Positions 15,035 through 19,864 of a stretch of 43,106 nucleotides of DNA are shown here, one piece after another. Below the pieces are notes generated by a model. That model ran no database searches, was not told the DNA's origin, and worked only from the letters and a program-made list of their open reading frames with translations. The stretch lies in assembly GCF_003334255.1 (NCBI RefSeq), contig NZ_QOWU01000049.1; one strand, 5' to 3'. How positions within the stretch are numbered: position 1 is the first letter of the stretch; the number at the start of each line of letters is the position of its first letter. Made by a program: the position numbers and the translations under genes. This DNA is from Escherichia coli. GTDB lineage: Bacteria; Pseudomonadota; Gammaproteobacteria; Enterobacterales; Enterobacteriaceae.

Positions 15035-15793
15035 TTATGCCTGGTGTAAAATAGTTAATACCGTGCGCAAATCATTTACCGAGATTTGCCCTGGCGCAGA
15101 CGCTTTTTTTACCGCACCAAAAGTTGCCGCCGAGCCAAATACTTCACCAGCCAGACGAGAAATTACGCCAGTTTTTGCCATCGACATCGTGATAATTGGA
15201 CGATCGGCATACTGCTCCTGCATCTCCAGGGTCGCGGCAAGCAACGTCAGCACATCGCTGGTACTTTGCGGCATCAGCGCAATCTTAGGAATATCGGCGT
15301 CGAAGGATTGCATTTTGCGCAGACGGGCAATGATTTCTTCGGCTTCCGGCGTTTTATGGAAGTCATGGTTGGACATGACTACTTTCACATCATGCGCGTG
15401 GGCGTAGGCGACGGTTTCTTTAACCTGATCATCACCGGTAAATAACTCCAGATCGATCATATCAACCAGGCCGCTGTCGATGGCTGCACGATTGAGTGCA
15501 ATATAAGCCTCGGTGGAAATCGCCTGCTCGCCGCCTTCTTTGGCACTGCGGAAGGTAAACAGCAGCGGTTTTTCTGGCATGGTCTCACGGAGAATTTTTG
15601 CTGCCGCCATGACAGACTCCACATTGGAGAGGTCGGCATAGTGGTCCACACGCCATTCCAGAATATCAAAGTCCGCTTCACGATAGGCGAGAGCTTCGGA
15701 TTTCACGCTGGCGATATCTTTCGCCATCAGCGAGACGATGATTTTAGGTGCGCCCGTACCAATGACGAGATCTTTTACAGTTACGGTTTTCAT
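15035..15793 (-). CDS. aroD: 3-dehydroquinate dehydratase, type I (252 aa)
   Basis: Translation [52 protein letters not shown]... Confidence 0.95.
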
Positions 15794-15823
15794 TTTTTAC
15801 CCTTTCTGCACGCGGTCAGCCTG

Positions 15824-16690
15824 TCAGGCACCGAACCCCATGACCTGTTTAACATATTCCAGAGGGAAATCTTTGCCAGTCCATAATGTGAACTGTTCAG
15901 CCCCTTGCCACAACAACATGCCGTATCCATCAATCGTTTTGCAACCAGCTTGTTGCGCCTGCTGCAATAACTTCGTCATATGCGGGTTATACACGCATTC
16001 AGTGACCAGAAGTCCCGGATGTAACAGACTGATATCATTAACCAATGATTCATTCTCAAGGGGTTTCATACCCACTTTTGTGCCATTGGTTAAAATGTCG
16101 GCGGAAGCCAGGGCTTCAGCAAAGGCTTGCTGATCGGCGAGATCGGTGACCGTGACGACACAATCGGTGTTTTCATTAACCCGCTGCGCGAAGGCGAGGG
16201 CTTTATCGAAGAACTCATCCCGACGGTTAAAGAGTTTAATTTCTTTTAAACCTTCAATTGCCCCCTGCGCGCCAATTGCCGTTGAGGCACCACCGGCCCC
16301 TAACAGCACCATCGTTTTGCCTTTGATATCAAAACCGCTCTCTTTAATGGCGCGAATATGGCCCGTGCCGTCGGTGTTATAGCCACGCAGATAGCCATCA
16401 TCATTAACGATGGTGTTGATGGCCCCCACCAGTTTGGCAGCTGGTGTTAATTCATCAACATATTCACACGCCAGTTGTTTGTTCGGCATCGATACACCAG
16501 TTCCGCGCATTTTGAGGGCTTTTAATCCTTCAATTGCTCCAGGAAAGCTATCGTTATCCACTTCGAAGGCCATATAGGTAAATGGCAATCCCGCTTTTTC
16601 TAAGGCTTTATTCTGCATTTCGGGCGATAAACTGTGGCGGATAGGATAGGCCATCAACCCAATCAATTCGTATTTTGCGGTAACATCCAT
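15824..16690 (-). CDS. ydiB: Quinate/shikimate 5-dehydrogenase, NAD(P)-dependent (288 aa)
   Basis: Translation [44 protein letters not shown]..., with [10 protein letters not shown] nucleotide-binding motif; immediately upstream of aroD. Confidence 0.93.
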
Positions 16691-16701
16691 AATTAACTCC
16701 T

Positions 16702-17967
16702 TTAACCTCTATGCTTAATTGTGTTTAACCGGGTGCAAAATTTACGCTCGCCAAACCGCACATCATTTTCAGGAATAATGAAAACGCGGTAATAGCGGAT
16801 AAAAACAATAATTGCGGTAATCAGGGCCAGCAGCGCGAAAGTAAAATCGAGAATAATGATATATTGCAGGCCGATGTTCGACAGATAACCGGTAATCAGT
16901 GGAATAACAAAGTTAGCCAGTCCACCCATCATCATATAAATACTGGTGACTTTGGCTTTGCTTTTGGGAAAAAACTCTGACATGACCGAAACGCCGAGCT
17001 GTAAAATGCCGCCAGCTGCTGAGAAACCGATAACAAAGGCTCCGGCATTGCACACCAGTGGAGAAGGGTACAGGTAGATAATGGCTGCTGTTATTGTTGC
17101 CAGTGCAGAGTTAAATACATTAGCCCAGATGGGCCGGACCATTTTTTTCAGTAGTGCGGCAAAAATAAAGACACAGACCAACGAGCCCATACTGTAATAA
17201 GAGATGGTTTTTAATGCCTCAGCTTCTGACATACCAGCAAAAGCCATCGCATATTTGGGCATCCACACCACAATCACATAAAAGGTCGAGAATGCGGCTA
17301 CACCGAACAGTACCGATGAAACACCTTCCAGCCAGACTAACGGTTTGCTGTTCATTTGCGGTAATTCATTAGTTACGCTGGCGTCCACCAACTGGCTGGG
17401 GAATTTGCTTTTCAACAGCATCAGCGTGATCAGTACAAATAGAATACCCGGAATAATCAGCCCATAGCCGTACCAGATATTATTGAGCAACATATAGCTC
17501 ACCAGCATTGGGTAGAACATTTGCCCAAATGACACCATCGCTTTAACCAGTATGACCGCCGAACCAGAGGCTTTCGGAAAGCATTCCATGAGCGCGGGGT
17601 AGCCACCCGTATCCAGCGCTGAGTTAGCGATACCTACGCACACTGCCAGACCGTAGGCGAGAGTTAAATTCGGGCAAGCGGGAATACCAAAGAAGAATAG
17701 CAGATACATTATTACTGCCATTAATATCACCGCCCGACGACCAAACTTATCGGAGATCACACCGAAGAATAAAATACTGATCAATCGCCCCAAACCGATA
17801 CCGGAAATTAAGTAGGCAATGCCCGCGTTGTCAGTGGAAAACTTTTCCGCCAGAGATGACATATTTTGGGCAAGCGTAATAACACTAATGCCGTGCAGGA
17901 AGTAGCTGAAGTAAATACAAAGAACAGCCAGGATAAATGGCGTGCTGAAAGCCTTATTTTGAGACAT
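16702..17967 (-). CDS. ydiN: MFS-family transporter (421 aa)
   Basis: Multi-pass hydrophobic protein [26 protein letters not shown]... The track ORF starts at a GTG two codons upstream; the ATG at 17967 has a GGAG RBS. Confidence 0.85.
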
Positions 17968-18193
17968 TTTCACAGCTCCTTGCTGAAAGATAATTTCGTT
18001 ACCGTACGTATTGTTCTCCGACGGTTTACATAATTACTATACTGAAGATGATTTTCCCTGGGTACATGGCATAAAGTTTATGTTTCCAGGAATATTGCAT
18101 GTCATAGTTTGTTTTTGATCGCGATTTTCCTTAGTTAGCGCAGAAAGAGTTATTTATCCGTAAGATCTTGCATGACCTGAAAAGAATATTGCA

Positions 18194-19408
18194 TTACCCA
18201 CCCGGAGCGACATTTTCCTTTAGCGAGTGATGCCGCGTTTTTTTGCGGCTGCGTAAGCCGATAAACAGTGCCAGTAAAAAACCGATGGCAGCGATGGCGG
18301 TATCGAACCACATAATATCGGCAATACTTCTTTGGGACAGATGAGCCGTAATCAACGGAATAGTAAAGGTCGCAATACTGCCCGCACTGTAATAGATCTC
18401 TGTAGCTTTACCTTTAGCGTAAGGGAAACGTTCAGCCATTAACGTCAGGCCAATTTGCACAACACCTCCAGCAGAGGTAAAACCAATGACAAAAGCAAAT
18501 ATTATCACCACATAAAATGTGGGATGCAGGCAGACGGTAAACAGAGCAATAAATGAGATAAAGGTGTACAGCATCAGTAATGTTGTTGGGCGAACGGTAT
18601 TACGAATGAGTGGAGCGGTAATAAATACACAAAGCAGCGAACCCACGGTGTAGATACTGAGTAGTTTGATCGACATAGTGTATGACATGCCTGCAACAAA
18701 TTGTCCGTACTGTGCCAGCCACTGGCTAACCAGATAAAACGTTGCCATTGAGATATAGCCATATAAGGTATAACTGGCTAAATCGATAATTGAACAGCGA
18801 TGTTCCGTAGAGCTGGTGGTTTTCTTTATGACAGGTAAGCGACGACCCGGATGGGGTGGGAACGTACAACGGTATAAAAACAGAGCGTTAATAAACATAA
18901 TGCCTGCAGCAATCATAAAGGACCAACCGAACCACAGTTCAGCCCACACTAACAGGCTAATGATTAGCGGTAATAAAAATTGTCCGCTGGAAACAAATGC
19001 TTTAATTAAAATATTGGCTGTCCCAGGTGAGCGTGGAAAAGCTTCCATCAAACTGGGATAAGTGCCTGCATCGAGAAAACTGTTTGCCATTCCCGCCAGA
19101 AAGCCAAAAACATAAGCGATAATGATGTTATTGGTCTGCAGGATGCCAAAAAAGAAGGCCATATAGCAGCACATCCCGAGCATGATAAAAGGGCGGCGAC
19201 CAAAGCGATCGGATAATAATCCTGCAAAAAGCAAGACACTTAATCGACCAATGCCCAGCGATGAGATAACTATCGAGACACCCGCGGCATTAGTCTGCCA
19301 AAGTGTCTCCAGCGAGGCCATATTCAGGCTCATCAAAAGGACGCCCATACCATGCACCAGGTAATTAAAATACAACCCAAGTGCGGTAGGGAAATAGGGA
19401 TTTTTCAT
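18194..19408 (-). CDS. ydiM: MFS-family transporter (404 aa), paralogous in layout to ydiN
   Basis: Translation MKNPYFPTALGLYFNYLVHGMGVLLMSLNMASLETLW...; the same sequence pattern (…GIGRLSVLLFAGLLSDRFGRRP…) as the ydiN product. Confidence 0.85.
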   Translation of the reverse strand: MKNPYFPTALGLYFNYLVHGMGVLLMSLNMASLETLWQTNAAGVSIVISSLGIGRLSVLLFAGLLSDRFGRRPFIMLGMCCYMAFFFGILQTNNIIIAYVFGFLAGMANSFLDAGTYPSLMEAFPRSPGTANILIKAFVSSGQFLLPLIISLLVWAELWFGWSFMIAAGIMFINALFLYRCTFPPHPGRRLPVIKKTTSSTEHRCSIIDLASYTLYGYISMATFYLVSQWLAQYGQFVAGMSYTMSIKLLSIYTVGSLLCVFITAPLIRNTVRPTTLLMLYTFISFIALFTVCLHPTFYVVIIFAFVIGFTSAGGVVQIGLTLMAERFPYAKGKATEIYYSAGSIATFTIPLITAHLSQRSIADIMWFDTAIAAIGFLLALFIGLRSRKKTRHHSLKENVAPGG

Positions 19409-19507
19409 AGGTTCTACTTAGCAAAGGTGCTTTAAAAAGTGAAGCGATGTTGTGTCAGCATCCGTTCATTATTGTTGTAACAACGACAATTCCTTTCTGT
19501 GGAAAAA

Positions 19508-19864
19508 TTAACAAAGCCGCTCCAGATCGTGTGCATATAATTCAGCAGCTACCGATTGATAGATCTTCCAGTCAATAAAATTGCCATCAGGGTAGACTCG
19601 TTGAAATGCGGTTAAGTCGGGGAAAAAACGCATGGTGTTGTTGCCGATGCGGTTATTTATTTTCTCTATGATGGCATGAAGATGTTTTTTTCTTTGCTGA
19701 CGCATAGCCAACAGTTGCTCGACTACACGATCAGGAATGGCACACTTGCCATTTTCCCACTGACGCCAGCTTTCACTGTCACCGGTCTGGGCAATCCAGG
19801 TCGCGCATTCATCAATAGTCATGGCAAAAATATGGCGGAGTGCCTGGAGTTCATAAGCGTTCAT
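19508..19864 (-). CDS. ydiL: Small HTH-like protein of unknown function (118 aa)
   Basis: Translation MNAYELQALRHIFAMTIDECATWIAQTGDSESWRQWENGK... The track start is a TTG 9 codons upstream; the ATG at 19864 gives the K-12-like length. Confidence 0.75.
   Translation of the reverse strand: MNAYELQALRHIFAMTIDECATWIAQTGDSESWRQWENGKCAIPDRVVEQLLAMRQQRKKHLHAIIEKINNRIGNNTMRFFPDLTAFQRVYPDGNFIDWKIYQSVAAELYAHDLERLC

Follow-up and report, generated by a model that had tools for sequence, protein, structure and literature searches.

The genes ydiN, ydiB and aroD of Escherichia coli lie next to one another, beside ydiM and ydiL, on the minus strand of a 43,106-nucleotide stretch of DNA (from contig NZ_QOWU01000049.1; the whole stretch is referred to here as the window). 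We tentatively propose that ydiN–ydiB–aroD forms the uptake-and-activation front end of a regulon resembling the carnitine cai/fix system, one that would reduce hydroaromatic enoates as coenzyme A (CoA) thioesters. The window represents an E. coli K-12-like chromosome in the orientation opposite to that of MG1655. The 7 kb around ydiL–aroD was 100% identical to E. coli K-12 and other strains, and the region found a match in 5,426 of 5,426 complete E. coli genomes, with a query coverage of at least 80% in 5,318.

The coordinates of the five genes in the original prediction, an earlier note on this DNA, agreed to the base with the RefSeq annotation and the list of open reading frames (ORFs); all five were on the minus strand, and profile searches bore out the families assigned to them. 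The type I 3-dehydroquinate dehydratase encoded by aroD (15035-15793) scored 292.2 bits on TIGR01093, for which the cut-off is 139.3. The product of ydiB (15824-16690), an NAD(P)-dependent quinate/shikimate dehydrogenase, matched NF009390 over residues 1-288 of 288 (669.9 bits, cut-off 349) and was the protein of PDB entries 1NPD/1O9B (E = 3.7e-194, full length). According to the summary in PMC4585142, quinate and shikimate are both substrates for oxidation by YdiB, and either NAD+ or NADP+ serves as cofactor.

The genes ydiN (16702-17967) and ydiM (18194-19408) encode transporters of the major facilitator superfamily (MFS), YdiN being a proposed hydroaromatic importer. Their description as two paralogues was confirmed by 36% identity over 385 residues (E = 6e-86). 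In precomputed Pfam results, PF07690 (MFS_1) was present in the 99%-identical cluster representative P0001 and in all homologues, and a crude hydropathy scan gave about 10-12 hydrophobic segments in the transporters. The aromatic acid:H+ symporter model TIGR00895 (cut-off 418.55 bits) was matched in its N-terminal part only, at 41.4 bits for YdiN and 37 bits for YdiM. TCDB lists YdiM/YdiN as 2.A.1.15.12/13, in family 2.A.1.15 (quoted in PMC10588857); that paper reports no direct transporter assay, in line with the earlier statement that the substrates of YdiM and YdiN are not established.

Intergenic gaps measured 11 nt for ydiN–ydiB, 30 nt for ydiB–aroD, 226 nt for ydiM–ydiN and 99 nt for ydiL–ydiM. 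The gap sizes thus make ydiN–ydiB–aroD operon-like, with ydiM and ydiL set apart, so that the operon-like ydiB–aroD pair of the original prediction is extended by ydiN. One 188-kb Logan contig encoded a 668-aa protein (P0007) that was 99% identical to YdiN and carried shikimate-dehydrogenase domains; because the ydiN–ydiB gap is so short, this is probably a ydiN–ydiB fusion through loss of the ydiN stop codon.

Gene neighbourhoods of the transporter family

YdiN, YdiM and twelve homologues were aligned, and 80 loci, from one genome per species, were fetched and sorted into 35 genus-level groups. The 10-kb flanks of each transporter gene were considered, and the ORFs of the loci were labelled by BLASTP against the window proteins and a few proteins from other loci. 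A YdiB-like gene lay within 10 kb of a YdiM/YdiN-family transporter in 35/35 genus groups, and a dehydroquinase likewise in 35/35, of type I in 33 and of type II in 3, which ties the family to quinate/shikimate enzymes far beyond E. coli. In Citrobacter amalonaticus AUH_CA_2023_1 (L044), ydiN and aroD were normally spaced, but none of the ORFs between them met the coverage filter as YdiB-like; the cause could be a frameshift or a fault in the assembly.

A C=C reductase system was found in the same flanks in 25 of the 35 genus groups, in two forms. The CoA type, with YdiF and YdiO and nearly always with YdiQRST and FadK, occurred in 15 groups. The enoate-reductase type, present in 10 groups (Klebsiella, Paenibacillus, Megasphaera, Clostridium, Isobaculum and others), had as partner an Fe-S flavoenzyme of the OYE type of about 690 aa, which resembled BaiCD, FadH and bilirubin reductase while scoring under every curated cut-off; its cluster order was LysR / reductase–ydiB–ydiM–aroD. 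An oxidative context was seen in only one group, that of Telmatospirillum, where a transporter 52% identical to YdiN was accompanied by a TetR gene, a type II dehydroquinase, a shikimate dehydrogenase and a QuiC-like dehydratase. The gene order itself was kept across at least 10 Enterobacterales genera. In Megasphaera paucivorans (L081, 12045-16941), an enoate-reductase-type cluster preceded genes for an AraC protein (36% identity to YdiP), a type II dehydroquinase and a YdiF-like CoA-transferase (60%), an arrangement that looks like a mixed form of both cluster types.

The transporters themselves fell into three clades in a neighbor-joining tree. E. coli YdiN grouped with the transporters of CoA-type clusters, which travel with ydiF, ydiO and genes for electron-transfer flavoproteins (ETFs), and with that of Telmatospirillum. 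E. coli YdiM grouped with the Klebsiella and Firmicute transporters of OYE-type enoate-reductase/ydiB/aroD clusters, and the third clade held the second MFS transporter of Firmicute clusters.

The CoA-type reductase genes

On the same strand as aroD, and 142 nt downstream of it, lies ydiF (13297-14892), encoding a fused family I CoA-transferase (PF01144), followed by ydiO (12132-13283), whose product belongs to the acyl-CoA dehydrogenase (ACAD) family (NF008997, 787 bits). The AraC-family regulator gene ydiP (11178-12089, plus strand) is divergent from ydiQ and conserved with the cluster. It is followed on the minus strand by ydiQ, ydiR, ydiS and ydiT (7505-10862), encoding ETF beta, ETF alpha, an ETF-quinone-oxidoreductase-like protein and a ferredoxin-like protein, and by the acyl-CoA ligase gene fadK (5802-7448; NF004758, 1087 bits). 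Annotated starts were used for ydiO (383 aa) and fadK (548 aa); open frames run upstream of both (12132-13337, 401 aa, and 5802-7502, 566 aa, respectively). The original prediction had limited the module to the five genes from ydiL to aroD, a boundary that we have abandoned, since ydiF–ydiO follow aroD on its own strand and ydiQRST–fadK has an upstream operator of the ydiN type (see below).

On the model for CaiA, the crotonobetainyl-CoA dehydrogenase, YdiO scored 452 bits, less than the cut-off of 540, so that it is a paralogue of CaiA and not CaiA itself. YdiQ and YdiS cleared the cut-offs of FixA (326 bits, cut-off 219) and FixC (639 bits, cut-off 610), YdiR did not clear that of FixB (321 bits, cut-off 549) and YdiT stayed slightly under that of FixX (144 bits, cut-off 166). 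These were nevertheless the second-best NCBIfam models, CaiA for YdiO and FixA/B/C/X for YdiQRST; for FadK the second-best model was cyclohexanecarboxylate-CoA ligase (417 bits), and its score on the CaiC model was 242 bits. As in systems of the cai/fix type, a CaiA-like ACAD and FixABCX-like proteins adjoin the transporter genes, and both a CoA-transferase (YdiF) and a priming CoA ligase (FadK) are present. Genes for a thiolase or a hydratase are absent from the annotated ydi cluster. Some Enterobacteriaceae had a second YdiO paralogue, with an identity of about 68-69%: it was seen in Citrobacter sp. NCU1 (L022, at about 2362, 7 kb upstream of ydiL) and in Escherichia albertii (P0149).

The CoA-type partnership was seen in at least six gene orders, that of the Enterobacterales included. 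Sutterella (L045 and L048, and also L002) carried fadK–ydiTSRQ divergent from ydiN–ydiB–aroD–ydiF–ydiO. Among metagenomic loci, ydiB–aroD was placed between ydiR and ydiS in L005 and after ydiR in L098; L093 was a single run of MFS–ydiF–ydiO–ydiQ–ydiR–aroD–ydiS–ydiT–fadK, with aroD alone between ydiR and ydiS, and L097 read ydiB–aroD–ACAD–MFS–ACAD–ETF–FixC. The Firmicute Sporolactobacillus (L082) showed ACAD–ETF–FixCX / LysR / ACAD–ydiB–aroD–MFS–MFS–fadK. A shikimate-kinase-like gene (AAA_18 and SKI domains; 7570-8235 of L097) adjoined an AraC gene and the YdiN-like transporter gene of that locus.

The spacer between aroD and ydiF (14893-15034) held two stable hairpins (fold z = -4.55) and was not conserved between genera. 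The GC-rich hairpin directly after aroD (14998-15024), with a stem of 9-11 bp and no U-tract on the coding strand, is possibly a partial terminator or an RNA-stability element before ydiF.

A predicted operator common to ydiN and ydiQ

Alignment of the ydiN upstream regions of 12 Enterobacterales representatives revealed one conserved block, and a similar sequence was found in the ydiP–ydiQ intergenic region. In the window, all on the minus strand, the proximal predicted operator of ydiN (TGCAATATTCCTGGAAACATAA, 18078-18099) lies 132 nt upstream of the start codon, and a distal half-site (ATGCAAGATCTTACGG) is at 18158-18173; the proximal one of ydiQ (TGCAAGATTGTTGGCAAGGAAA, 10967-10988), nearly invariant in 11 genera, lies 126 nt upstream of the start codon, with its distal half-site (ATGCAAGATTGTACGG) at 11047-11062. 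The distal-to-proximal spacing was exactly 73 nt at both promoters.

A 22-nt position weight matrix (PWM) was built from the ydiQ-proximal sites of 11 genera only, to guard against circularity, and was run over whole loci of about 20 kb on both strands. In 11/11 Enterobacterales loci, the best match outside the training sites lay 100-285 nt upstream of ydiN, in the same orientation. In the 21-kb Sutterella locus, the two best matches both fell in the divergent intergenic region between ydiQ and ydiN, each facing its gene. The E. coli ydiQ site scored 30.5, and the ydiN site was the second-best match in the window. The motif TGCAAKATT occurred five times in the window, with 1.3 expected, and four of the five copies were in the upstream intergenic regions of ydiN and ydiQ. 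With a first matrix of 26 nt, T-run flank included, the ydiN site of E. coli came third, under the null maximum; that matrix was replaced by the trimmed 22-nt core.

Because the operator stands upstream of both ydiN and ydiQRST–fadK, the two blocks look like one regulon; as in cai/fix-type systems, the transporter/enzyme and electron-transfer operons would be under common control. No operator site was found before ydiF, nor any conserved promoter block in the aroD–ydiF spacer of 12 genera, which suggests that ydiF–ydiO is read through from ydiN, past the hairpin. AraC-family YdiP is the likely candidate to bind the operator, since its gene is divergent from ydiQ and conserved with the cluster. 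The upstream regions of ydiL and ydiM had no consistent strong site, a strong one being present in Prodigiosinella only.

Proposed pathway and competing explanations

In the pathway that we propose, YdiN would import quinate, shikimate or 3-dehydroshikimate, and YdiB (with NAD+) and AroD would convert quinate through 3-dehydroquinate to the alpha,beta-unsaturated ring acids 3-dehydroshikimate and shikimate. The CoA thioester of the ring acid would be primed by FadK and recycled by YdiF, and YdiO would reduce the C1=C2 double bond with electrons delivered via YdiQR, YdiS and YdiT, after which the dihydro product would be released and exported. The whole would be a hydroaromatic counterpart of carnitine cai/fix, serving as an anaerobic electron sink, with YdiP as its likely regulator and with aroD retaining its biosynthetic role as well. 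Shikimate and 3-dehydroshikimate are cyclohex-1-ene-1-carboxylates, and their CoA esters would therefore be 2-enoyl-CoAs, the substrate type of a CaiA-like reductase. OYE-family enoate reductases attack this type of double bond in free acids, so both cluster types would point to one chemical step.

Further support came from published experiments. In the work of Little et al. (bioRxiv 10.1101/2022.12.26.521950), both Sutterella wadsworthensis and Eggerthella lenta turned shikimate into hydroshikimate by reducing its enoate, and both grew better with it; E. lenta induced a flavin reductase, but for Sutterella no enzyme was named. The shikimate-reducing S. wadsworthensis carries the CoA-type cluster (L048). 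In shikimate-overproducing E. coli, ydiQ, ydiR, ydiS and ydiT were among the roughly 50 genes most differentially expressed between growth phases (20-32-fold). The joint induction of ydiN, ydiB and aroD under carbon limitation and the higher shikimate titre of a ydiN deletion, both described below, also count in favour of the pathway. In the literature library searched, and in that library only, no paper was found that ties ydiF/ydiO/ydiQRST to hydroaromatics or the enoate reductase to quinate clusters.

Several points count against this proposal. Neither E. coli nor any of the proteins concerned is known from experiment to reduce shikimate or quinate, and the direction of electron flow is not readable from sequence. 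Current annotation points elsewhere, making YdiF an acyl-CoA:acetate/3-ketoacid CoA-transferase and FadK a medium-chain fatty-acid ligase. The score of the E. coli ydiN operator, 16.3, was reached in 13% of random 43-kb windows, and the weight of this site lies in its position and conservation, not in its score. Nine Lactobacillaceae groups had the transporter, ydiB and aroD with no reductase within 10 kb. A reverse search from YdiO returned a 77% homologue within the L093 cluster, a 74%-identical one (L091) that stood alone with no cluster, and a 63% homologue from Desulfovibrio in a CaiB-type system without ydiB or aroD; the hydroaromatic link is thus limited to close relatives of YdiO with a YdiF partner. 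The expression data on ydiQRST come from a comparison with no non-producing control, in which the direction of the ratio is ambiguous. The fatty-acid literature on the cluster and the phenotypes of a ydiM deletion, both taken up below, weigh in the same direction.

A rather less probable explanation, which can coexist with the cai/fix-like reading, is salvage or "hydroaromatic equilibration": YdiN, with YdiM, would move shikimate, quinate and dehydroshikimate, and YdiB and AroD would link them to biosynthesis, for aromatic amino acids or as overflow, the ydiF–ydiO and ydiQRST–fadK genes being unrelated neighbours. The dehydroquinase encoded by aroD is the biosynthetic one, and the window also contains aroH, at a distance of 13 kb. 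According to the account in PMC4585142, Johansson & Liden (2006) found ydiN, ydiB and aroD induced together in a shikimate producer under carbon limitation and proposed YdiN as a hydroaromatic transporter; the quinate and dehydroshikimate by-products of the shikimate producer were ascribed to YdiB (PMC4585142), and deletion of ydiN raised the shikimate titre 1.3-fold (PMC8788726). The hydroaromatic link of ydiM/ydiN to ydiB–aroD put forward in the original prediction is thus already in print and is not new. Salvage leaves unexplained that ydiB/aroD stand in among ETF and ACAD genes in L005, L093, L097 and L098, that ydiN and ydiQ have an operator in common, and that the alternative cluster type contains an enoate reductase.

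It is less probable again, and in our view improbable, that the two blocks are merely adjacent, with ydiF–ydiO, ydiQRST and fadK serving anaerobic fatty-acid beta-oxidation, ydiN–ydiB–aroD being a separate aromatic-pathway operon, and the synteny reflecting common ancestry. In its favour, PMC3967523 cites Campbell et al. (2003) for a role of the cluster in anaerobic fatty-acid beta-oxidation, FadK fits the model for medium-chain fatty-acid ligases, and it is mainly related Enterobacterales that supply the synteny evidence. Against mere adjacency, the rearranged clusters of Sutterella, of four metagenomic architectures and of one Firmicute keep the association, the operator is common to both blocks, and the cluster is without the thiolase or hydratase genes. 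The "y-ome" paper places ydiO and ydiQRST among genes of varying annotation quality, with limited functional information for ydiO.

The original prediction read the locus as a partial uptake/catabolic module for quinate/shikimate. The family-wide link to ydiB and a dehydroquinase supports the hydroaromatic part of that claim, and, as in clusters of the qui/qsu/qut type, a quinate/shikimate dehydrogenase, a dehydroquinase and a permease stand together; oxidative catabolism was not borne out, the conserved partners being C=C reductases. A tblastn search of the window with the QuiC-like protein of Telmatospirillum gave no real match to a 3-dehydroshikimate dehydratase (AsbF-type enzymes were not searched). 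Homologues of the type II dehydroquinase, the OYE reductase, TetR and IclR were absent from the window, as was any homologue or remnant of a LysR-, IclR- or TetR-type pathway regulator. We therefore consider it highly unlikely that the locus is the decayed remnant of an oxidative quinate/shikimate cluster that lost its dehydroshikimate dehydratase and protocatechuate branch. The YdiN homologue of Telmatospirillum does sit in an oxidative cluster, yet this context is confined to that one genus group, the genes are intact in 5,318/5,426 E. coli genomes, and conservation of their order across Enterobacterales genera is unlike the behaviour of a remnant.

Least probable is that YdiM, and perhaps YdiN, carries copper or solvents such as isoprenol, which would make the ydiB–aroD adjacency uninformative on substrate: deletion of ydiM slowed 64Cu uptake, impaired the bo3 oxidase when the bd oxidases were absent and lowered isoprenol tolerance (PMC10588857), but the copper effect may be indirect, a transport assay with purified protein is not in the literature (PMC10588857), and ydiB and aroD accompany the family in all of the genus groups covered here, as about 75% of YdiM/YdiN homologues adjoin a shikimate-pathway gene in the survey of Khalfaoui-Hassani et al. 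(PMC10588857).

The ydiL–ydiM pair and other features of the window

The small helix-turn-helix protein that had been noted as YdiL (19508-19864, minus strand; 118 aa) proved to be of the Aca2/YdiL family, with a full-length PF08965 Aca2_YdiL domain (E = 3.1e-61, residues 1-118 of 118). It has its own crystal structure (PDB 1S4K) and is kin to structures of the anti-CRISPR-associated Aca2 repressor (about 1e-14). The gene was found in 12 genus groups, in Enterobacterales only, and always with ydiM. A CRP-like box, TGTGA-N6-TCAAG, is present in the ydiL promoter region (19926-19941, minus strand), by resemblance to the consensus only, and TGTGA-N6-TCA recurs in 10 genera. It falls within a conserved promoter block upstream of ydiL (19926-19971) that is common to 10 Enterobacterales genera. 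In Escherichia, Citrobacter, Kosakonia, Serratia and Symbiopectobacterium the box is adjoined by AATAATATTGCACAAG, the reverse complement of which holds the TGCAATATT core of the ydiN/ydiQ operator, with weak PWM scores of 9-10.

The pair ydiL–ydiM is probably a separate, CRP-controlled unit. Its inclusion in a ydiB–aroD module, as first supposed, finds no backing in a consistent operator, and YdiM belongs to another transporter clade than YdiN; the orthologue of YdiM is the transporter in clusters of the alternative type, where an OYE-type enoate reductase would act on the free acid. A LysR gene stands between ydiM and ydiN in Yersinia, Dickeya, Brenneria, Symbiopectobacterium and Prodigiosinella (L030-L039, L063), and its product is 44-47% identical to the LysR of the Firmicute enoate-reductase clusters. 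Escherichia, Citrobacter and Kosakonia have instead a gap of 150-480 nt (17968-18193 in E. coli), in which no remnant of the LysR gene was detectable; the ydiM–ydiN intergenic region showed no RNA structure (z = 0.73).

Next upstream of ydiL is the small RNA gene rprA (20000-20107, 118.5 bits), with its terminator 135 nt ahead of the start codon of ydiL. A second small RNA gene, rydB, was found at 25711-25771 (81.6 bits). Beyond fadK lie aroH, encoding the Trp-sensitive DAHP synthase (701 bits), ppsR and ppsA (998-5745), with about 13-14 kb between aroH and aroD. Repeats in 14800-20300 were limited to short matches, read as chance, and a scan for promoters and terminators gave no more sites than shuffled sequence.

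Relation to known systems and significance

The closest known system is E. coli caiTABCDE with fixABCX, which has a transporter, a CoA-transferase, a priming CoA ligase, an ACAD-type enoyl-CoA reductase and an electron supply of the FixABCX type, like the ydi genes; YdiO and YdiQRST are direct paralogues of CaiA and FixABCX, and in both systems the enoyl group would arise by dehydration. The two differ in that the ydi CoA-transferase is of family I (PF01144) whereas CaiB is of family III, the ydi transporter is an MFS protein and that of cai a BCCT protein, and the ydi double bond would be made on the free acid by YdiB and AroD rather than on the CoA ester by a crotonase. The candidate regulator is AraC-type YdiP instead of CaiF, and the ydi substrate is putative.

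Caffeate respiration by CarABCDE of Acetobacterium woodii likewise reduces a plant-derived unsaturated acid, by means of a CoA-transferase loop, a priming ligase and, together with ETF, an enoyl-CoA reductase of the ACAD type, as in the ydi proposal. It differs in its cytoplasmic electron-bifurcating complex, which operates without FixCX, in its phenylpropenoate substrate and in having no dehydrogenase/dehydratase front end. Oxidative quinate/shikimate clusters, such as qui of Acinetobacter, qsu of Corynebacterium and the fungal qut, also group a dehydrogenase, a dehydroquinase and a permease, and a YdiN homologue occurs in such a cluster in Telmatospirillum. The E. coli locus, in contrast, is without the dehydroshikimate dehydratase/protocatechuate branch, has a type I and not a type II dehydroquinase, and is accompanied by reductase partners.

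Cider lactobacilli were reportedly found by Whiting and Coggins in the 1970s to reduce quinate/shikimate to dihydroshikimate, with hydroaromatic acids as hydrogen acceptors, and the genes are said never to have been assigned. Secundilactobacillus collinoides and Lactiplantibacillus carry ydiB/ydiM-like/aroD clusters (L058-L062); most Lactobacillaceae loci are without a reductase within 10 kb. The flavin "shikimate reductase" of E. lenta has the same proposed net reaction, from the shikimate enoate to hydroshikimate as a respiratory electron acceptor (bioRxiv 10.1101/2022.12.26.521950). It is, however, a fumarate-reductase-like flavoprotein that acts on the free acid and is homologous neither to YdiO/ETF nor to the OYE-type enzyme. 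ShiA, the shikimate/dehydroshikimate permease of E. coli, is also an MFS importer for the same class of compounds, and deletion of shiA or ydiN raises the shikimate titre (PMC8788726); it belongs to another MFS subfamily than YdiN and is unlinked to pathway genes, elsewhere on the chromosome.

E. coli keeps a quinate dehydrogenase and is not known to grow on quinate. One testable hypothesis now spans about a dozen poorly annotated genes. If the hypothesis is wrong, the region stays as the literature has it, a biosynthetic gene beside a poorly understood dehydrogenase and two orphan transporters. If it is right, YdiB would gain a physiological role, and ydiF, ydiO, ydiQRST and fadK would lose their assignment to "anaerobic beta-oxidation"; a second, CoA-independent way to the same chemistry would then be seen in the OYE-type clusters of Klebsiella and Firmicutes. 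The reassignment would also matter for by-product control in shikimate fermentations.

Put more broadly, and with somewhat greater reserve, E. coli and many gut- and plant-associated bacteria might use dietary quinate/shikimate as an anaerobic electron acceptor, through import by YdiN, conversion by YdiB/AroD, activation by FadK/YdiF and reduction by YdiO–YdiQRST, under YdiP. E. coli would thus have an unrecognised anaerobic electron sink for abundant plant acids (quinate, shikimate and breakdown products of chlorogenate). The ydiFO/ydiQRST coding sequences and the regulator gene ydiP are reported to be degraded in extraintestinal Salmonella serovars, and, given this decay, such a sink could bear on colonisation of the gut.

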